Shown: positions 10,222 through 53,423 of the stretch, one piece after another
Layout: each line of letters opens with the position of its first letter
Numbering within the stretch: the first letter of the stretch is position 1
Assembly (NCBI GenBank): GCA_028715115.1
Contig: JAQUSN010000001.1
Span: forward strand, 191,067 to 255,066
DNA: 64,000 nucleotides
DNA from: Patescibacteria group bacterium
GTDB taxonomy: Bacteria; Patescibacteriota; Patescibacteriia; UBA2591; UBA4787
Direction: 5' to 3'
Position numbers and translations under genes: made by a program
The notes under the pieces: generated by a model
Database searches by the model: none
Told to the model about the DNA's origin: nothing
What the model saw: only the letters and a program-made list of their open reading frames with translations

Positions 10222-11334
10222 ATGAAATTAACAGTTCTGCAAGAAAACTTAAATAAAATTTTATCTCAACTTAGTCGTTTAACAAGCACAAAGGCGACTT
10301 TGCCAATTTTAAATAACGTTTTAATTGAAGCCGAAAAAGGAGTTTTGAAATTAAGCACGACCAATTTAGAAATAGCGATTAGTACTCAAATTAGGGCTAA
10401 AGTAGAAAGGGAGGCGAAAATAACCATTCCTTGCCAAATTTTTGCCAACTTTGTTAATTTATTAGATAAGGGTCCGATAGATATCGAGCTTTTAGAAAGC
10501 AATGAAGTTAGCTTGAAGTCAAAAAATAGCGTAACTAAAATAAAGGGCACGGTGGCCGAAGAATTTCCAATTATTCCTCAAGTAGATCATAAAAATTTTT
10601 TCAAAGTTAACGCCCTAGATTTAAAGCAAGCTCTAGATAAGGTTGCTTTTACCGTTTCGCCAAACGAAACGCGCGCTGAAATTAGTGGTGTTTTATTTTC
10701 CTTTAACCCAGAAAACGACATTTTAACCCTAGTCGGCACCGATAGTTATCGTTTAGCAGAGAAAAGTTTTAAGGTTATCGAATCTAATATTAAAGAATCG
10801 CACAGCCTAATTGTTCCGGCGCGAACAATTCAAGAATTAAGTCGGATCGTCGAAGAAAAAGGAGTAATTGAAATTTATTTTGCCGAAAATCAAGTTTTAT
10901 TCATCTATGAAGCTACAGAAATAATTTCGCGTATTATAAATGGCGAATATCCCGACTATCGGCAAATTATTCCTCAAACTTTTGCCACTCGCGCCCTAAT
11001 GGAGAAAGAAGCTCTTTTAAGGGCGGTTAAGGCTGTTAGTCTATTCACTAAAATTGGTTTAAATGACATTAATTTAAAATTCCAGGCTAGCGGCGACAAA
11101 ACCATTGTTTCTTCTTTAAATAGTCAGGTGGGCGAAAGCCAGATTGACTTAAAGGCAGAAATAAAAGGCGAAGACAATGAGATTATTTTTAATTATCGAT
11201 ATTTATTGGATGGACTTTTAAATATTGGCGGCGATGAAGTGAGTTTAAATATTGTTAATGACAATTCGGCGGCAGTTATAACCTCACCAACCGAAAAGGA
11301 CTATTTGTATTTGGTTATGCCTATTAAAAAATAA
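10222..11334 (+). CDS. dnaN: DNA polymerase III beta sliding clamp
   Basis: 370 aa. It opens MKLTVLQENL... and shows a three-domain clamp-like repeat pattern with the right length. Confidence 0.8.
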   Translation: MKLTVLQENLNKILSQLSRLTSTKATLPILNNVLIEAEKGVLKLSTTNLEIAISTQIRAKVEREAKITIPCQIFANFVNLLDKGPIDIELLESNEVSLKSKNSVTKIKGTVAEEFPIIPQVDHKNFFKVNALDLKQALDKVAFTVSPNETRAEISGVLFSFNPENDILTLVGTDSYRLAEKSFKVIESNIKESHSLIVPARTIQELSRIVEEKGVIEIYFAENQVLFIYEATEIISRIINGEYPDYRQIIPQTFATRALMEKEALLRAVKAVSLFTKIGLNDINLKFQASGDKTIVSSLNSQVGESQIDLKAEIKGEDNEIIFNYRYLLDGLLNIGGDEVSLNIVNDNSAAVITSPTEKDYLYLVMPIKK

Positions 11335-11438: not shown

Positions 11439-11714
11439 ATGAATAAAGCTGAATTAATCGAACAGTTAGCCGGCAAGGTGGGCGCCGACTCCAAGGCCGA
11501 AGTCGGTCGTTGGATTGACGCTTTCGTTGATATGGTCATCGGCACCTTAAAGAAAGGCGACGAAGTCGCTATCGCTGGTTTTGGTACTTTTATAGCCAAG
11601 ACTCGCGCTGCTCGAACTGGTCGAAATCCAAAGACTGGAGAAAGCATTCAGATTAAAGCCACTAAGGTTCCAAAATTCAAGGCTGGAAAGGGCTTTAAAG
11701 ATGCTTTAAAATAA
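11439..11714 (+). CDS. hup: Histone-like DNA-binding protein HU
   Basis: 91 aa, [11 protein letters not shown]...GFGTF....[13 protein letters not shown]. An AGGAG-like SD lies upstream. Confidence 0.92.
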
Positions 11715-11745
11715 AAATTAAAGCCAAATCTTCAGTACTGAAAAT

Positions 11746-11782
11746 AAAATCCCTTATTTATTAAAAATAAGGGATTTTATTG
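11746..11782 (+). terminator. Rho-independent terminator after hup
   Basis: aaaatcccttattta/ttaaaaataagggatttt hairpin followed by a T-rich tail. Confidence 0.7.
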
Positions 11783-11995
11783 TTGGGCGAATAATTTTTT
11801 GTTTAAAAATATTTATAGTAAATTGGGAATATGCAAAAAGTAACCCTTCAGGCGCAGACTGTTCGGGGGGGGGTATTTTAGCTCTATTTAGTCCCCAGGT
11901 CTGTCGGCAGGCCTGGGGACGTTGAAGCTAAAATAAAACGGGAGTCGGCGACGAGCGCCTTCTCCCGCGTAGTTCCTCCATGGACTTCTTGTTTG

Positions 11996-13036
11996 TTATC
12001 CTCCCTGTCGATCCTTGCGCAACGCCAGGGCCAGCTTCGCGATACACTCAACGGCCTCTTCGCTTAGCGTGCCCGGATTACCGACCTGTTCCAGTTCTTC
12101 GCGTAGATCGGCGATGACGAGCTGGCGCACGGCCGGGCCTTCTGTTTCGGCTACGTGCACTTCTGCAGCGCGCGCTGTCTCTCTTCGTGCCTGGACCGAC
12201 GATGCTCCTCTCTTGCCTCCGCGATTCTTAGTCGAAACGCCGGCAAGATGACCCCGCCCTCCACCATTACTGCGCCATTCTTTCTCTGGTAGGAGGCTTT
12301 GGTCAACATCCACCAGTAACGAATCTGTAACGACGCCGAGTGCTGAGGCCATGCGCTGAATGGTCTCTATTGACGGCAGGGTGCCCGACTTCTTGAAGCT
12401 GACCCAGGCTGACTGAGGCCGGGCGGCATCGGGAGATATCGCCCTACCTATTACCAGGAGAGTGATCCCTTTTTCTGTCTTGGCCTCTTCGACGTTTCGG
12501 AGAAGCGCCTTCTTTGATTTCGCCTCTCCTTCTTGCGGTTTACGGGGCATAGAGCCCTTCCTTTCGATTGATACCCTTCTTGCCTTGGTGGTCTTTGCTC
12601 TTGTGTTCGGCCTTGTGTTGGCCGCCTTCACTGTTACTGTTTGTGGGTCAGGCGGATCAGCGGCGGTAGCCGTTGGCTTTGGGTTGGTTGCATCATCTTC
12701 TTGGGCTGGCGTAGTCTTTTTGGGGTCGTGCCCATTGTGCATTATAGCGCTCGGACTAATGCCCAAGCGCTGGCAACAGGCGAGAATCTGGTTGCTGGTT
12801 AATAGGTTCCAGGCAGTATCTCTGAGCCAGCTGTGCCAGACTTCAATCGGCCTGTCAGTCCTGGGGCTAACGATAAGTCCCATGGCCGCTTCGCCATACA
12901 TTCGCCGTTCAGCGGCGTCCAAAGCGATGGCTTCTCTCTCTACTCGCGCTGCTTCAAGCCTTCTGGCCACTAGCAGTTTTTGCGCTGTTCCGTCGTGGTT
13001 ATGATGGCCCGCCGCTTCTATTGGGGCCACACTCAT
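11996..13036 (-). CDS. GC-rich islet A: 346-aa protein with a central XRE/Cro-type helix-turn-helix segment
   Basis: Clean ORF at about 58% GC in a 35% GC backbone. The segment ...SAWVSFKKSGTLPSIETIQRMASALGVVTDSLL fits the XRE HTH pattern. It has a strong SD (AAAGGAGGTGTT-ATG) and a TTGACA promoter at 13092-13120. The function of the N- and C-terminal domains is unknown. Confidence 0.6.
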   Translation of the reverse strand: MSVAPIEAAGHHNHDGTAQKLLVARRLEAARVEREAIALDAAERRMYGEAAMGLIVSPRTDRPIEVWHSWLRDTAWNLLTSNQILACCQRLGISPSAIMHNGHDPKKTTPAQEDDATNPKPTATAADPPDPQTVTVKAANTRPNTRAKTTKARRVSIERKGSMPRKPQEGEAKSKKALLRNVEEAKTEKGITLLVIGRAISPDAARPQSAWVSFKKSGTLPSIETIQRMASALGVVTDSLLVDVDQSLLPEKEWRSNGGGRGHLAGVSTKNRGGKRGASSVQARRETARAAEVHVAETEGPAVRQLVIADLREELEQVGNPGTLSEEAVECIAKLALALRKDRQGG

Positions 13037-13091
13037 AACACCTCCTTTCTAAACAGACTTAGTCTTCAATGGAATTCCGAGTTATAAATAT

Positions 13092-13120
13092 AATTAACCA
13101 TTTTTAGCCGACTTTGTCAA
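13092..13120 (-). promoter_or_regulatory. Promoter of islet-A gene (TTGACA-17-TTAATT, minus strand)
   Basis: The reverse complement reads cTTGACAaagtcggctaaaaatggTTAATT, followed by the SD and ATG at 13036. Confidence 0.5.
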
Positions 13121-13130
13121 GTTAAAATAA

Positions 13131-13157
13131 AAATACCCCTAAGGGGCATTTTTGGTA
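13131..13157 (-). terminator. Terminator of the SDR gene (hairpin aaatacccctaaggggcattttt)
   Basis: GC stem with a T-run on the minus strand, immediately 3' of the SDR stop. It is paralogous to the hairpin at 13924-13950. Confidence 0.6.
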
Positions 13158-13194
13158 CTGAGTAGTTCAAGGTAAGAACTGCTATTTTCAGCTT

Positions 13195-13875
13195 TTATGC
13201 CAATCTTCTTTTTTTGCGGTTAATGGTTATGTCTGTTATTTCTATCTGTTTTGGTAATTTTAGTAAATATAAAACTATATTAGCCACATCGTTTGGGTCC
13301 ATCCACTCCGATGGGTCTTCTATTTTTTTTCTATAGTCTTTTTCGTGCATCTGTGTATTCATACCGCCACAGTGAATATATATCATTCTACTTTTTGTGT
13401 TTACTAGCTCTAGGCCGATATTATATGAGCCACCCCTTAGTCCATATTTAGTAGACGTATATGCTAGTTGATCATTAAATCCGGCCTTAAGGTCTGCCGT
13501 TGTGCCTATATTCAATATATCTGCTTCGTTTTTTACAATATTATCAAATAGAGAAGATATGAAATAGAGTGGTGCAATCGTGTTTATTTTAAATGCCCTT
13601 TCGAATTTAAGATATGTAATTTCGTTTATCTTTTCTCTACCCACAATTGCGGCACAGTTTATTATTGCGCTAAAATCATCATATTTTTCTTTTATTATAT
13701 TAACGGCATCGTTAATATTTTCTTCTTTAGATAAATCACAGGCGATATTAATAACACCAGATATATTACAAGGCGTTCTGCTTATATTAATTACCTCTAC
13801 CTCTTTTTTTACACACAAATCGGCGATTGCTTTACCGAGACCATCGCTAGCTCCTAATATGATTATTTTTTTCAT
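13195..13875 (-). CDS. Short-chain dehydrogenase/reductase (SDR) family oxidoreductase
   Basis: N-terminal ILGASDGLGKAIA (TGxxxGxG NAD(P)-binding motif) and a catalytic YTSTK (YxxxK) motif. GC is very low, about 28%. Confidence 0.75.
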   Translation of the reverse strand: MKKIIILGASDGLGKAIADLCVKKEVEVINISRTPCNISGVINIACDLSKEENINDAVNIIKEKYDDFSAIINCAAIVGREKINEITYLKFERAFKINTIAPLYFISSLFDNIVKNEADILNIGTTADLKAGFNDQLAYTSTKYGLRGGSYNIGLELVNTKSRMIYIHCGGMNTQMHEKDYRKKIEDPSEWMDPNDVANIVLYLLKLPKQIEITDITINRKKRRLA

Positions 13876-13923
13876 ATTTTTATTTAAATCAATTTTTAAG
13901 ATTTTGTCAAGAAGTTTTTATAA

Positions 13924-13950
13924 AACAATAAAATGCCCCTTAGTGGCATT
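13924..13950 (-). terminator. Hairpin downstream of tRNA-Lys (aaaatgccccttagtggcatt)
   Basis: Stem-loop at the tRNA 3' end on the minus strand followed by a T-rich tract. It is a sequence relative of the 13131-13157 hairpin. Confidence 0.5.
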
Positions 13951-13951
13951 C

Positions 13952-14027
13952 TGGTGCGCGTGGGAGGATTCGAACCCCCGACCTTCTCCTTAAGAGGGAG
14001 CAGCTCTACCAACTGAGCTACACGCGC
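13952..14027 (-). tRNA. tRNA-Lys (anticodon CUU)
   Basis: The reverse complement gives a cloverleaf GCGCGTG-TA-GCTCAGTTGGTAGAGC-...CTCTTAA...GGTTCGAATCC...CACGCGC-A-CCA. The anticodon loop CUCUUAA carries CUU and the CCA tail is encoded. Confidence 0.85.
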
Positions 14028-14095
14028 GCATTGGTCTTTTAAAATAATTTACCCCGCCTCGATTTATCCGTTCGCTGGCGGACTGAAGACTTATA

Positions 14096-14167
14096 TGCCC
14101 TCAAGAGGATTCGAACCTCTAATCTCAGCTTCGAAGGCTGATGTGATATCCATTTCACCATGAGGGC
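14096..14167 (-). tRNA. tRNA-Arg (anticodon UCG)
   Basis: Reverse complement GCCCTCA-TG-GTGAAATGGATATCAC-A-TCAGC-CTTCGAA-GCTGA-GATT-AGAGGTTCGAATCCTCT-TGAGGGC-A. The anticodon loop CUUCGAA carries UCG. Confidence 0.8.
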
Positions 14168-14190
14168 CTAGGTTTTAGCGGTGGTTTACT

Positions 14191-15243
14191 TTATTTAATA
14201 ATTAATTCCGGATATAAAGTATGAGCTAAGGCCACCTCACGAGTGATAAGTCCTTGTTTTAAAAGTTGGTTAAGAGATTGTTCAATACTGATCATACCTT
14301 CTTGTCCGCCGGTTTGTAGTACTGACTTTAACTGATTAACTTTATTTTCACGAATTAAATTACTAACAGCTGTATTGTTGATTAAAATTTCTCTTGCCGC
14401 GATTCGCCCACCGTCTTGTTTGGCCAATAAGTGTTGAGCAATAACGGCTCGTAAAGCCAAGGCTAATTGCAAACGAATTTGCGTTTGTTGGTGTGGCGGG
14501 AAGACGTCAATAACACGATCAATAGTCTGGGGGGCGTTTGGTGTGTGAAGGGTGGCGAGGATTAGGTGCCCGGTTTCGGCCAGGGTAAGCGCCAGAGAAA
14601 TAGTTTCCAGATCTCTCATTTCGCCAACCATAATTACATTTGGATCTTGACGAACGATGCGTTTTAAGCCGTCAGCAAAAGAGAGCATGTCTTTACCGAG
14701 TTCGCGCTGCGAAACAATACTTTTGTCTGGTGTAAAAACAAATTCAATTGGATCTTCTAGGGTGATAATATTGCAAATCCTGTTTTGATTAATGTAATTA
14801 ATCATAGCGGCCATGGTTGTGGATTTACCGCAACCAGTTGGGCCAGTGACAATAATTAAGCCATTGTGCAGTTTGGTTAATTCTTTAGTAATGGGCGGCA
14901 TATCAATTTCATCCATATCTGGAACGTGCGGCCAAATAATGCGCGCAGCCAGGGCTAGATTGTTTTTCTCCCAATAAAGGTTAATACGGAAACGGGCGCA
15001 GTCATCGAGCTTAAAAGATAAGTCTAACTCTTTATTATTAAAAATTTCTATTTTTTGTTTTTTGTCGATAATCGGAGCGACTAAATTAATAATGTCTTGA
15101 TTGGTCAAGATTGGCCCATTTATTCGCTGCAAAACTCCATCGACACGAAAAACAGGCGGACAATTTGCCAATAAATGAACATCGGACGCTTTTTGATTTA
15201 CTGCTTGTTGAAAAATTTGCTGAAGACTTAAGTTCATAGCCAT
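14191..15243 (-). CDS. pilT: Type IV pilus retraction (twitching motility) ATPase PilT
   Basis: 350 aa, Walker A GPTGCGKSTT, and PilT/GspE family boxes (RQDPNVIMVGEMRD, tetracysteine-free PilT type). Confidence 0.8.
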   Translation of the reverse strand: MAMNLSLQQIFQQAVNQKASDVHLLANCPPVFRVDGVLQRINGPILTNQDIINLVAPIIDKKQKIEIFNNKELDLSFKLDDCARFRINLYWEKNNLALAARIIWPHVPDMDEIDMPPITKELTKLHNGLIIVTGPTGCGKSTTMAAMINYINQNRICNIITLEDPIEFVFTPDKSIVSQRELGKDMLSFADGLKRIVRQDPNVIMVGEMRDLETISLALTLAETGHLILATLHTPNAPQTIDRVIDVFPPHQQTQIRLQLALALRAVIAQHLLAKQDGGRIAAREILINNTAVSNLIRENKVNQLKSVLQTGGQEGMISIEQSLNQLLKQGLITREVALAHTLYPELIIK

Positions 15244-19264: not shown

Positions 19265-19296
19265 AAAAAGACGGAATTAATGTCCGTCTTTTTCTT
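19265..19296. terminator. Bidirectional intrinsic terminator between the islet-B gene and recA
   Basis: aaaaagacgga-attaatg-tccgtcttttt hairpin with U-runs on both strands. Confidence 0.7.
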
Positions 19297-25467: not shown

Positions 25468-25497
25468 CAAAAAGACGTTTCAAAACGTCTTTTTGCA
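25468..25497. terminator. Bidirectional terminator between tRNA-Leu(UAG) and rpmA
   Basis: aaaagacgtttcaaaacgtctttt hairpin with U-runs on both strands. Confidence 0.6.
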
Positions 25498-29469: not shown

Positions 29470-29541
29470 GGGCGCATAGCTCAGTGGTAGAGCACCACTC
29501 TTATAAAGTGGGGGTCGATGGTTCGAACCCATCTGCGCCCA
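29470..29541 (+). tRNA. tRNA-Ile (anticodon UAU, AUA-decoding type)
   Basis: GGGCGCA-TA-GCTCAGTGGTAGAGC-A-CCACT-CTTATAA-AGTGG-GGGTC-GATGGTTCGAACCCATC-TGCGCCC-A. The anticodon loop CUUAUAA carries U34-A35-U36. The acceptor stem is extended by flanking complementary ctctaagtg / cacttagag. Confidence 0.8.
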
Positions 29542-29618
29542 CTTAGAGAATAAAATAATGTTATCTACCGATATATAGGTCGCAACTTTATAAATTATTT
29601 TAATTGTAGCGACCAATA

Positions 29619-47297: not shown

Positions 47298-47343
47298 ATA
47301 GAATAATCCCAATTTCGTCACTTTGAAAGGAGGTGATATTTCA

Positions 47344-47694
47344 ATGAATGACAGAGTAAATCCGAAGATTAAGCAGTTCCTTCAGAGGTACTTCGGTGGG
47401 ACCGACCTGGCCTCGATCATGACATTCCTGGATAAGGGCTTCAGTCTCAACGGCCAGGTAGTCGTTTCCACCATCTTCGTCTCTGCCCAAGAGTGCAGAG
47501 TCCCCGTGACTCGTGTTTTGGCAGAATGCGAGAAAGAGTGGGACAGGAACTGGAACTTCCAACACCCAGAACTCAGAGGAAACCCCGATGCTCCCGGTGG
47601 CGCTGGTATGCAGAACAGGGCTTCCCTCGAAAAGATCTATACCGCTCTCGGTATACCAAGTCCGAGAGAAGGGCGGGCCAGGAAAAGGGTCTGA
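47344..47694 (+). CDS. GC-rich islet J1: 116-aa soluble protein of unknown function
   Basis: AAAGGAGGTGA SD 7 nt before the ATG at 47344; the track start at 47323 is a TTG inside the SD region. About 53% GC. A terminator (tcggggctgcc-gtag-gcagccccga plus U-run) follows at 47722-47755. Confidence 0.55.
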   Translation: MNDRVNPKIKQFLQRYFGGTDLASIMTFLDKGFSLNGQVVVSTIFVSAQECRVPVTRVLAECEKEWDRNWNFQHPELRGNPDAPGGAGMQNRASLEKIYTALGIPSPREGRARKRV

Positions 47695-47848
47695 GCCCGA
47701 GACTCGCTGTTTCGCAAATCGTCGGGGCTGCCGTAGGCAGCCCCGACTTCTTTATTTAATGAAAGGGCCCAGCTTATTCAGCTAGGGCCCTTCTCTTATA
47801 TGCACGATGTGCATGATACCTCCCCTTGATTGTTAGTGGAGCGCGTTG

Positions 47849-48484
47849 TTATCGAAGCTCCACGGAAGCCACTCTGACTGCGGCGATGAGCAGCCACAGC
47901 ATGAACCACCCTATCTCTTTAAGCAGTCGTTGATTCATCCGAAGATAGAGCGTTCTTAACCACTGCTTGTGCTCCATGCCAACAAACCCAACCGGTTTGG
48001 TGACCAAGAAGCGTTTTTCTTTGCCCATCATTCCAAACAGCACGAACGTCTCGCGACGGAAGGGGCTGAGCCACGAGATTCCGATGTTGAACTCTTTGCC
48101 CTGCTGATCGTACTCACCAAGGCTGTCTTTTCCGAAGTGGAGTAGAGACCCCGCTGCGAACGTTAATGGCCAAATCAATGGCCAGCGCAACAGCAAGGCC
48201 AGTGCAAACCAGACGGTGAGGGCAATGCCGAAATAGAAGGGTTGGTGCAGTATGGTCCGATGATGACCGCGTGAATTGCCCCTTATTTTGGCATCGACGA
48301 CCTTCAGTACGATGTCGAGATCCGGCAGCAACGCAAAGAGAATCGCTGCCGAATAGATCCATGGCCAGTGCTGTCGGAAATAGTGGTCATCGATTGTACC
48401 AAGAGCAGTGCCAATCATCAGACCGCTGCCGATGTCGGCAGTAGCAGCCAGAACGTCACCGAATAAGAGTTTAATTCTGTCCAA
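47849..48484 (-). CDS. GC-rich islet J2: YdjM/DUF457-like membrane-bound metal-dependent hydrolase
   Basis: LLPDLDIVLK...RGHHRTILHQPF aligns with YdjM LLPDIDHPKS...HRGFTHSLL. Multiple TM segments; about 57% GC. Confidence 0.45.
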   Translation of the reverse strand: MDRIKLLFGDVLAATADIGSGLMIGTALGTIDDHYFRQHWPWIYSAAILFALLPDLDIVLKVVDAKIRGNSRGHHRTILHQPFYFGIALTVWFALALLLRWPLIWPLTFAAGSLLHFGKDSLGEYDQQGKEFNIGISWLSPFRRETFVLFGMMGKEKRFLVTKPVGFVGMEHKQWLRTLYLRMNQRLLKEIGWFMLWLLIAAVRVASVELR

Positions 48485-48584
48485 TTTCTCCCGCCTTTCT
48501 GTTTACCATTCGGTCTTCAATCAGTGTTATATCATATAATTTCACATTTTTGCCTTTTTGTCAAGATTATATAATTTTTTGTAA

Positions 48585-48617
48585 AAAGAATAGCGGGTGA
48601 GTATAGGAGCTCACCCG
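48585..48617 (-). terminator. Terminator of islet gene J3
   Basis: agcgggtgag-tataggag-ctcacccgct plus a U-run on the minus strand. Confidence 0.6.
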
Positions 48618-49003
48618 CTCAGAGACAAACTTCGATTGGATTGGACCTTCTCTTGCCAGTATCCCATCAACGAGAGAGCGTAGCCGAAGGCTACATAGCC
48701 AGCGACCAGCACGACGAGCATCACTGGCGAGAAAATGAGTTTCGGCCAGAGATATAGCGCGGCAAATCCGCTCAGAAGTATTCCTGACAGTATGACACCC
48801 GCGGCGAAAGAACCCTTACCCCTTCTCACCGACCCTAGCATAAGGCCGGTGACCATAATGAAGTGTGGAAGGAAACGGGCTATCATCTCTGCGTTGAAAT
48901 TGTGCCGAAGCGTGCCGCTGTTTATCACGGCATAGCCTCCCAGCAACCATGCCGCAACATAAGCAGCCATCAGGAAGGCACATCGGAGTACGTGTCGTAT
49001 CAT
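48611..49003 (-). CDS. GC-rich islet J3: 130-aa four-TM membrane protein
   Basis: About 58% GC. Promoter module cTTGACAaaaggtcaaaaatat at 49040-49075 on the minus strand. Confidence 0.5.
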   Translation of the reverse strand: MIRHVLRCAFLMAAYVAAWLLGGYAVINSGTLRHNFNAEMIARFLPHFIMVTGLMLGSVRRGKGSFAAGVILSGILLSGFAALYLWPKLIFSPVMLVVLVAGYVAFGYALSLMGYWQEKVQSNRSLSLSG

Positions 49004-50674: not shown

Positions 50675-50777
50675 TTATAAAAATACGATATTTAAAATTG
50701 AAAAGACGAGTTTTAAGCCCGTCTTTTTGATTAAGAAAAACGCTGACCCGAGAGAGCCAGCGTCGAGGCTGAGTCCG

Positions 50778-50936: not shown

Positions 50937-51075
50937 TGCCGCCTCCTTTCCGAGGGATTAAACCTCATTATTATTTTAAAATTAATTTTATTTTTGTCAA
51001 CTCCACAAAATTTTAAAAAGTAAAAGGCTGTTGTTGATATTATCTCCAACAGCCCGTAGCACGAGCAGCTCGTCA

Positions 51076-51345
51076 TTAGTCTATGCCCGCCTCAGGGCCT
51101 CGCCAGGCCTTAGATATCTTCCTTCGCCGAATCCGACTTCGATCTTTCTTTTGCCTTTGCTGATGGTCGTCACGAGCAGGCGGTGTCCTCGACACTTTGG
51201 GTTAGCCACGGCTCTCATCAGGTATGTGCCGGGAGCAAGCCGACGACTCTTCCCTCATGAAGATCTTCCGGCTGAAAAGTCGAGCACGTCCAGGCACTGG
51301 CTGATTGTTAAGACGAATCTGTCTGGCTTCATGAAGCCTCCTTAT
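51076..51345 (-). pseudogene. GC-rich islet I2: ORF interrupted by an in-frame TGA after codon 25 (possible pseudogene, readthrough or recoding)
   Basis: AAGGAGGcttcATG (51343-51345). MKPDRFVLTISQCLDVLDFSAGRSS-TGA-GKSRRLAPGTYLMRAVANPKCRGHRLLVTTISKGKRKIEVGFGEGRYLRPGEALRRA in one frame. Terminator hairpin ggctgttg...caacagcc at 51026-51054. Confidence 0.3.
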
Positions 51346-51445
51346 GTTTTATTTTATTCTTATTTCCAAAAATGAAAAGGGCCTCAAATAAAATTATATC
51401 GGGCGGGAGCTGTGTGCTCCCGCCCGAAAGTTGTAGACTAGCTCA

Positions 51446-51754
51446 TCAGTACCAGGTGGGCCCTGGACGGAAGGCGATCTGTTCTATCCGCTGCTGTCGT
51501 TTTATTCTTTCGACTTCAGCGGCAGCGGCTACTCGCCGATTGGCACGCCATCTCCTCTTCCTGGCGGTTCTCAGAGTGTTCAGGCCCTTGTCTGCGGCCT
51601 TGGACCTTGAGTGTCTTCCTCCGGCGGGCCGTAACATGGTCACGACCTTGTCTTCTCTCGCCCCACACGTCGAACATGCGTTCGGCAACGATCCTTTGCC
51701 TGAGAAGGTCTTGGTGGTGCCGCAGTTTGTGCAGCGCTGAGTGTATCTTGCCAT
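51446..51754 (-). CDS. GC-rich islet I3: 102-aa basic zinc-ribbon protein (CxxC...CxxC)
   Basis: MARYTQRCTNCGTTKTF...ACSTCGARE, then an Arg/Lys-rich tail. AGGAGtactgATG. Promoter TTGACA-17-GATAAT at 51819-51847 on the minus strand. Terminator cgggcgggagc-tgtgt-gctcccgcccg at 51400-51426. Confidence 0.55.
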   Translation of the reverse strand: MARYTQRCTNCGTTKTFSGKGSLPNACSTCGAREDKVVTMLRPAGGRHSRSKAADKGLNTLRTARKRRWRANRRVAAAAEVERIKRQQRIEQIAFRPGPTWY

Positions 51755-53069: not shown

Positions 53070-53423
53070 GTGAATACATCTCGATTCAGAAAGCTGTTGG
53101 TTGGGGTCTGCGATAAGCTCGACCTACTGCCTCACGAATATCCGGACGTTGACGTGAGTTGTTGCCGCGGTCAAATTTCGGTACAGCTTACGGTGACGGA
53201 GCCGGACGACCGTTATCCAGGAGATGAGTTGGTGGTGCTTGACCCTGCTCGGCGAGCCGACGCTCCTGCTTACAGATTCTTTCGCGGTCACGGCGGCGAG
53301 GTACTCGGCTCGTTTATAAGAGCGGTGAGAGCGGCAACTCCGGGTGGCGTTCGAGTCCAGATTAAGGCGCGCTATGCGCGGCTGGGGGTCAGCTTAACCC
53401 GAAGATGCGTCGTTCAGTCCTGA
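53070..53423 (+). CDS. GC-rich islet F: 117-aa protein of unknown function (GTG start)
   Basis: About 62% GC. Promoter TTGACA-17-AATAAT at 53024-53052. GGAGG-taat-GTG. Terminator gaggcgaac-aaccg-gttcgcct plus U-run at 53444-53475. Confidence 0.45.
   Translation: MNTSRFRKLLVGVCDKLDLLPHEYPDVDVSCCRGQISVQLTVTEPDDRYPGDELVVLDPARRADAPAYRFFRGHGGEVLGSFIRAVRAATPGGVRVQIKARYARLGVSLTRRCVVQS

Follow-up and report, generated by a model that had tools for sequence, protein, structure and literature searches.

Within a 64,000-nucleotide stretch of a Patescibacteria group bacterium genome (GenBank assembly GCA_028715115.1, contig JAQUSN010000001.1, positions 191,067 to 255,066 of the forward strand; hereafter the window, numbered from its first letter), we analysed a 2.3-kb segment between hup and a tRNA-Arg gene. 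It holds, all on the minus strand, a tRNA-Lys gene, a short-chain dehydrogenase/reductase (SDR) gene and a GC-rich orphan gene. We read this segment as a small hypervariable islet at a tRNA-Arg/tRNA-Lys hotspot of a Patescibacteria lineage, composed of independent units and including an SDR gene that has moved, and we put the probability of this reading at roughly two in three (0.68). As such it adds one more case to a kind of feature already known; the mechanism by which the islet was integrated is not recoverable from the data. The features of the locus are listed below (ORF, open reading frame).

10222-11334, plus strand: dnaN
11439-11714, plus strand: hup (coordinates confirmed)
11743-11781: bidirectional hup terminator, a perfect 17-nt inverted repeat followed by T runs; left limit of conserved synteny
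11782-14092: variable islet of 2.3 kb
about 11835-13075: GC-rich block (about 57% GC against about 39% for the genome), holding the orphan gene and its structured 3' tail
11891-11969, minus strand: 3' tail of the orphan gene, with a predicted GC-rich terminator hairpin at about 11940-11969, a T run and then a second long hairpin at 11891-11920
11996-13036, minus strand: orphan gene, an ORF of 346 amino acids
13105-13125, minus strand: promoter-like site of the orphan gene (TTGACA, 17 nt, TGGTTAATT), read from the sequence
13129-13153, minus strand: hairpin J2 (core 13130-13152), 11-pair stem, 3-nt loop and T tail, -13 kcal/mol, z = -2.9; behind the SDR gene
13195-13875, minus strand: SDR gene (681 nt, 226 amino acids)
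13876-13911, minus strand: promoter-like site of the SDR gene (TTGACA, 17 nt, TTAAAT), with no Shine-Dalgarno site before the ATG
13930-13952, minus strand: hairpin J1, 8-pair stem and T tail, -10.7 kcal/mol; behind tRNA-Lys
13952-14027, minus strand: tRNA-Lys(CTT) with encoded CCA, called by ARAGORN and Rfam
14096-14167, minus strand: tRNA-Arg(TCG); right limit of conserved synteny
14191-15243, minus strand: pilT-like ATPase gene, followed by efp, rpsR and ssb

Comparative anatomy of the tRNA locus

Conserved blocks flank the islet, with dnaN-hup to its left and tRNA-Arg-pilT-efp-rpsR-ssb to its right. In a blastn comparison with L023, the closest relative in which both flanks are present, the two sequences were collinear up to 11781 and again from 14093, and nothing matched in between. 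This bears out an earlier note on this DNA, made from its letters and open reading frames, which had described an island-like segment beside the tRNA pair. The same note had set the limits at hup and the end of tRNA-Lys, and here it has to be corrected. In an alignment, the tRNA-Lys of the window differed throughout from the type found in L013, L014, L016 and L023: its acceptor stem reads GCGCGTG versus GCCCCCA in the relatives, its D loop is longer and its CCA is encoded. Between the tRNA-Arg genes of the window and L023, identity is 93%. The synteny breaks at 11781 and 14093, together with this odd type of tRNA-Lys, indicate that the variable block (11782-14092) takes in the tRNA-Lys gene itself.

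Other relatives showed further arrangements at the same place. They are listed here with their protein identity to the PilT of the window, except for L023, for which nucleotide identity is given.

L023 (about 77% nucleotide identity): a 255-amino-acid helix-turn-helix (HTH) ORF between tRNA-Arg and tRNA-Lys; the counterpart stretch is 2.3 kb of DNA unrelated overall, with a 147-amino-acid ORF, a small GC-rich ORF and a tRNA-Lys of the other type
L013 (84%): a 245-amino-acid HTH ORF between the tRNAs; other small ORFs past tRNA-Lys
L014 (75%), L038 (75%) and L036 (74%): a short spacer between the tRNAs; a convergent NUDIX gene past tRNA-Lys
L016 (74%): a short spacer between the tRNAs; the contig ends about 200 nt past tRNA-Lys

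Neither the SDR gene nor the orphan gene was found at the locus in any of these relatives; six relatives besides L023 retain PilT-tRNA-Arg-tRNA-Lys with neither gene there, and what follows tRNA-Lys varies across seven. No similarity was detected between the islet and the segments that follow tRNA-Lys in the relatives. The 245- and 255-amino-acid ORFs between the two tRNAs (L013, 5291-6028; L023, 9350-10117) each carry a weak N-terminal HTH, and the two tRNA genes lie only 2-14 nt apart in L014, L016 and L036. A further trace of change was seen in L023 at 10325-10425 (minus strand), between pilT and the intact tRNA-Arg gene, where a tRNA-Arg of the L013 type is represented by a 33-nt 5' half that breaks off in the anticodon loop, accompanied by a 15-nt duplicate of the 5' end of the intact tRNA-Arg. 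These pieces look like the footprint of tRNA gene replacement or tRNA-linked recombination. On the other side of the islet, L019 (1960-2107) and L023 (8580-8890) have in common a promoter, a Shine-Dalgarno site and a GC-rich ORF of about 64 amino acids just downstream of hup, with a terminator after it in L023; neither Pfam nor Rfam matched this ORF, and the window does not have it.

The SDR gene and the GC-rich orphan gene

The ORF at 13195-13875 matched adh_short (PF00106) with E=2e-24 and 86.6 bits against a cutoff of 26.6, and its translation contains GASDGLG and YTSTK motifs. Its product is accordingly predicted to be a classical SDR, as the earlier note had proposed for this frame; no specific NCBIfam equivalog reached its cutoff. 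Like the classical, FabG-like SDRs of the adh_short family, it matches over its full length and has the glycine-rich nucleotide-binding and YxxxK motifs. It differs from them in being unusually conserved (80-87%) across distant genomes of the candidate phyla radiation (CPR), in shifting contexts. More than 50 protein clusters were 76-87% identical to it, from Falkowbacteria, Paceibacterota and other CPR bacteria and also from metagenome-assembled genomes (MAGs) labelled Nitrosarchaeum, Methanoregula and Burkholderiales. By comparison, the neighbouring PilT had three clusters above 80% identity, most of the listed clusters falling at 55-62%. The gene contexts of the SDR homologues were unrelated to one another, and nucleotide identity, at about 79%, ended exactly at the start and stop codons. 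Set against the genome that carries L008, the SDR protein was 83% identical and an RRM protein 49%. The high identity, the shifting contexts and the confinement of homology to the coding sequence together indicate that the SDR gene behaves as a horizontally moving CPR gene. Most likely it was gained here, between tRNA-Lys and the orphan gene; that the direction was gain, not loss, is something we infer.

Three of the loci with SDR homologues deserve mention for their neighbouring genes. The SDR gene is paired with a gene for a 116-amino-acid protein of no known function in L004 (4644-5681) and L008 (5001-6036), the two 116-amino-acid proteins being 85% identical. Their order is opposite, with the SDR gene second in L004 and first in L008. 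This pairing suggests that the two genes travel together as a small module, from which the window has retained the SDR gene alone. In L011 (6273-10681), a contig labelled Methanoregula, the SDR homologue adjoins genes of the N6_Mtase/Eco57I-type methyltransferase, SMODS-AGS_C and SLATT_4 families. We take these neighbours to be restriction-modification-like and related to cyclic-oligonucleotide-based antiphage signalling systems (CBASS-like), that is, a defence-island context.

The composition of the gene is ordinary. The earlier note had called it ultra-AT-rich at 28% GC, but we measured 32.7%, within the genome's own range (dnaN, 34.8%; a neighbouring 299-amino-acid ORF, 31.6%). The supposed compositional opposition between the two genes thus holds for one of them only. 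The orphan gene, which occupies the coordinates proposed for it (11996-13036), has a GC content of 56.8%, slightly below the earlier 58% but still the extreme of the window, where the median of the 27 open frames that span 750 nt or more is 39% and the next highest reaches 43.5%. Its GC content at third codon positions is 0.56. By the deviating-composition test for genomic islands, the orphan gene stands out and the SDR gene does not.

For the orphan protein, a word-indexed search of 5.8 billion proteins returned only the protein itself. An exhaustive HMMER search of 1.84 billion representatives found a single homologue, P0242 (319 amino acids, 39% identity, E=1.6e-41). In the alignment of the two, conserved blocks alternate with variable, low-complexity linkers, the pattern expected for a real protein, and both contain more Gly, Ala, Arg and Pro than host proteins do. 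On the P0242 contig the order is EFP-PilT-(501 nt)-P0242 on a single strand, so that locus and orientation are those of the window. The 501-nt spacer between PilT and P0242 fits two tRNA genes but not the 681-nt SDR gene, indicating that the P0242 locus has no SDR gene. As far as they are known, the members of the orphan family number two in about 15 billion proteins, both apparently of GC type and both just downstream of what is, or for P0242 would be, a PilT-tRNA-Arg-tRNA-Lys locus. Because a homologue with 39% identity occupies the same position in another genome, the orphan gene is not simply a recent arrival.

The full-length orphan protein had no match in Pfam (E<=0.1), NCBIfam or PADLOC. 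PHROG returned a weak 'transcriptional regulator' match (phrog_8, E=0.0018), and the excised domain scored 13.7 bits against HTH_3 (PF01381), below the Pfam gathering cutoff of 23. An AlphaFold2 model built on the two-sequence alignment with P0242 had a poor predicted local distance difference test (pLDDT) score of 55.6 overall but one of 80-89 over residues of about 165-250, where five helices were modelled (171-189, 193-200, 207-216, 223-233 and 237-240). The top 50 Protein Data Bank matches of this domain in Foldseek were mostly XRE-type HTH proteins, including DdrO, SinR, C.AhdI and lambda cI, with target-normalised TM-scores of 0.6-0.74 and root-mean-square deviations of 2.4-3.0 Å over 64-74 columns; every E-value exceeded 0.04. 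The XRE-HTH label of the earlier note, unsupported by Pfam, is thus partly rescued by the weak PHROG match, the sub-threshold HTH_3 score and the confidently modelled sub-domain. The protein models as having a central XRE/Cro-C1-like HTH domain at residues of about 165-250, which would fit a role as a regulator, and neither Pfam nor the model gave any sign of a catalytic domain. The predicted five-helix domain resembles that of the XRE/Cro-C1 (HTH_3) regulators. The protein differs from these in staying below the Pfam threshold, in carrying the domain centrally and not N-terminally, and in having two known members; its flanks, made up of a long helix at the N-terminus, two disordered linkers and a pair of helices at the C-terminus, are likewise unlike those of XRE regulators.

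The orphan gene has a perfect Shine-Dalgarno site (AAAGGAGGTG) 5 nt upstream of its ATG. Downstream, its 3' tail (11790-12000, minus strand) folds at -64.9 kcal/mol (z = -5.6) into two strong hairpins, and the GC-rich non-coding stretch between these hairpins and the hup terminator contains a G9 homopolymer (C9 on the minus strand) at 11861-11869.

Hairpins J1 and J2 and the origin of the islet

The earlier note had rested its case for integration on two related hairpins bracketing the SDR gene, the second of them abutting tRNA-Lys. Both are there (13130-13152 and 13930-13952). Allowing up to three mismatches, we found the motif AATGCCNCTNAGGGGNATTTT in the 64 kb at these two sites only (0.1 expected by chance), and the stems of some 50 other terminator-like hairpins in the window are all unlike them. 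J1 begins 1-2 nt past the encoded CCA of tRNA-Lys. Over their length the two agree at about 26 of 31 positions, but as short direct repeats, which they had been taken for, they do worse than as inverted ones (cores 17/21 against 19/21). ACCA precedes both cores and at J1 consists of the discriminator base and CCA of tRNA-Lys.

A terminator scan called both hairpins on the minus strand, each just 3' of a same-strand gene, and they look functional as predicted intrinsic (Rho-independent) terminators of the tRNA unit and of the SDR gene. They resemble such terminators in their G+C-rich stem of 8-11 pairs, short loop, preceding A tract, following T tract and position behind a same-strand gene, and are unlike ordinary ones in their mutual similarity only. 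Even that similarity is less special than it had seemed: the J1-J2 score of 29 ranks fifth among 1423 terminator-region pairs in the window, and unrelated pairs reach 31-35. Treated as a pre-specified neighbouring pair, J1 and J2 have p ~0.004, and with about 50 neighbouring pairs some 0.2 such cases are expected by chance. The perfect palindrome version (AAAATGCCCCTAAGGGGCATTTT) is a plain bidirectional terminator in unrelated viral contigs (four viral matches), so convergence of J1 and J2 is possible. Small families of similar terminators do exist in this genome, since a stem of the AAGACG...CGTCTT type is common to terminators at the unrelated positions 19268-19290, 25474-25495 and 50703-50725.

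Within 13-23 nt downstream of each hairpin lie CTTGACAAA and an extended -10-like element. At loci near 55.0 kb and 33.8 kb, the same TTGACA...TAAAAATG...-10 arrangement gives an equally good alignment, and the promoter half of the two junctions is, as far as sequence can tell, the genome's generic promoter. We therefore dropped an extended 'terminator plus promoter' duplication, whose local score of 33 was equalled at the unrelated loci at ~55.0 kb and ~33.8 kb, the common part being this generic promoter. A third candidate junction copy, behind the orphan gene (GAACTAC...TTTTATTTTARCTT), ranked 20th of the 1423 terminator pairs and is not claimed.

On these predictions, the islet would consist of three independent minus-strand transcription units. 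The tRNA-Arg/tRNA-Lys unit would be ended by J1. The SDR gene, with its own TTGACA promoter and essentially leaderless, would be ended by J2, and the orphan gene, with its own TTGACA promoter and strong Shine-Dalgarno site, by the GC-rich hairpin that faces the hup terminator. Gene layout, base composition, breaks in synteny and the spread of the two genes are observed directly; promoter usage throughout is deduced from these motifs. In the history that we favour, the SDR gene would be a conserved gene for an oxidoreductase, passed between CPR genomes and inserted here between tRNA-Lys and a resident orphan, and the orphan gene would encode a lineage-restricted, GC-type XRE-like DNA-binding protein already tied to the tRNA locus before the SDR gene came.

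The earlier note had seen instead the remnant of a site-specific integration. In our version of that reading, an element with the SDR gene would have entered an attB site formed by the tRNA-Lys 3' end and its terminator, leaving J1 and J2 as attL and attR, and its integrase would later have been lost. Several observations speak for this: J1 and J2 are the sole copies of their motif in the 64 kb, lie next to each other and each follow an ACCA; the P0242 locus has no room for the SDR gene; L008 likewise has its SDR gene 68 nt past a tRNA-Arg(GCG) and its terminator; and the truncated tRNA-Arg 5' half in L023 indicates that tRNA-linked recombination does happen at this locus. Integrative elements usually have their integrase next to the tRNA, however, and neither the islet, with its two ORFs, nor more than 3.5 kb past each of its ends contains an integrase or recombinase (gene table of the same genome), an absence that the note itself had recorded. 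Direct repeats carrying a tRNA 3' segment were not found either, the four letters ACCA being all that is held in common with the tRNA. No tRNA remnant precedes J2 (13153-13197, minus strand, against five tRNAs; best uncorrected p ~0.014, not significant), and Rfam gave no partial tRNA there at E<=1. The repeats agree only in part and match better when inverted, unrelated terminator pairs are equally similar, and in unrelated phage contigs this palindrome is a plain terminator. SDR copies elsewhere have no flanks of this hairpin type, and in L008 we found no att-like or tRNA-end repeats around the gene. With the tests for an integrase and for tRNA-derived direct repeats both negative, the att footprint is unsupported, the hairpins are better read as terminators, and an integration remnant is unlikely.

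Known mobile systems offer partial likenesses. The islet resembles tRNA-linked islands of the tyrosine-integrase type, with att in the 3' part of a tRNA, in having variable genes of mixed composition right downstream of a tRNA that are absent from relatives, and in having short similar sequences at the tRNA end and on the far side of one gene. It differs in that there is no integrase, the repeat is ACCA plus a terminator and not a tRNA segment, the two copies are ~84% identical and palindromic, the whole is just 2.3 kb and the tRNA itself lies inside the variable block. With integron cassettes it has in common a single ORF followed by an imperfect palindrome, and cassette-like units in series. 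Integron attC sites, however, typically measure ~55-140 nt and have R''/L''/L'/R' sites, with an IntI integrase nearby; here the hairpins span 21-25 nt, there is no integron integrase, each unit appears to have its own promoter, and SDR copies elsewhere lack the hairpin. A phage or integrative and conjugative element context, for which the note had proposed a search, did not emerge: IMG/VR held no relative of the orphan protein, the GC-rich block matched no plasmid, the SDR protein was below 30% identity to phage proteins, and the tRNA-Lys 3' end was not found in viral contigs. PADLOC returned no defence matches. Around the GC-rich block, a search for terminal inverted repeats or target duplications gave only AT-rich low-complexity matches, and no known RNA was found in the islet or in that of the relative. 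The literature search on tRNA islands in CPR genomes returned nothing relevant.

A different origin would be replacement en bloc, in which tRNA-Lys of the new type, the SDR gene and the orphan gene were acquired together from a different CPR genome, through homologous recombination within the hup and tRNA-Arg flanks, the terminators being convergent. The breakpoints do match the ends of conserved sequence, the tRNA-Lys is unlike that of the relatives, elsewhere the homologue of the orphan gene is tied to this same PilT-tRNA locus, and equally similar convergent terminators are present in the window. The compositions of the parts (tRNA-Lys, 61%; SDR gene, 33%; orphan gene, 57% GC) argue for separate histories, however, as does an orphan without an SDR gene at the P0242 locus, and we consider a single transfer quite improbable. 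More radically, the GC-rich block might be foreign DNA mis-joined into a low-GC contig, as the abrupt step from 39% to 57% GC and the several Logan contigs that end within the block might suggest. Yet both of its junctions were 100% identical in six assemblies, namely two NCBI MAGs (one of them GCA_028713815.1) and the Logan assemblies from four runs; the block is bordered on either side by native sequence, and the P0242 homologue is also linked to EFP-PilT. The identity of the junctions across these assemblies shows that the arrangement is not a chimera, and the chance of one is next to nil. Nor is it at all probable that the block is a structured non-coding RNA with a spurious 346-codon ORF. 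In AT-rich genomes a GC-rich patch is often an RNA gene, and the 3' tail folds strongly (z = -5.6), but Rfam gave no match (E<=1), the ATG has its perfect Shine-Dalgarno site, 346 sense codons would arise by chance at ~3e-6 at this composition (a rough estimate), and a full-length homologue with block-wise conservation and a confidently modelled HTH domain point to a protein. A more ambitious idea is that the orphan HTH family serves as signature gene for a minimal element, mobile or prone to recombination, that is specific to this CPR lineage. Such an element would be aimed at the terminator region of tRNA-Lys, would carry in a tRNA-Lys of its own and would pick up passengers such as the SDR gene by recombination at the ACCA-hairpin junction; we hold this to be a long shot.

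Several points weigh against the hypervariable islet that we prefer. No true empty site was recovered: the note had expected one between hup and tRNA-Lys in relatives, and both genes are indeed missing there, but the relatives' sites hold other DNA. J1 and J2 still fall in the top 0.35% of terminator pairs, and they are neighbours, each preceded by ACCA, so that a common origin of the two, and a true duplication linked to the SDR insertion, are plausible. The absence of the SDR gene at the P0242 locus is read from gene coordinates alone, and the promoters and terminators of the islet are predictions from the sequence. The islet reading also does not account for the ~57% GC of the orphan gene, whose positional homologue is only 39% identical. 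As to what the note had named as speaking against integration, neither a common terminator family of this motif nor conserved synteny of both genes in relatives was observed.

What the locus documents is a recombination hotspot, tied to a tRNA pair, in small, streamlined Patescibacteria genomes. At this one place, relatives differ by exchanged tRNA genes and by HTH genes inserted between the tRNAs, and a highly conserved dehydrogenase gene appears to hop between distant lineages. The mobile SDR gene and the two-member family of GC-rich, XRE-like orphans tied to the tRNA locus are curiosities of minor interest. Current views are not overturned, since variable islets linked to tRNA genes and metabolic genes that move horizontally are both well known. 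The case also carries a caution, in that neighbouring terminators and promoters in AT-rich genomes can mimic att repeats.

Further features of the window

The window contains further GC-rich patches at 47400-48900, 51000-51600 and 53100-53400 (51-59% GC), which may be additional foreign or fast-evolving islets. Their ORFs at 47323-47694, 48611-49003 and 51372-51740 had no Pfam match, and the ORF at 47849-48484 is YdjM-like. Elsewhere, ARAGORN called a tRNA-Ile with the anticodon TAT, an isoacceptor uncommon in bacteria, at 29470-29542.

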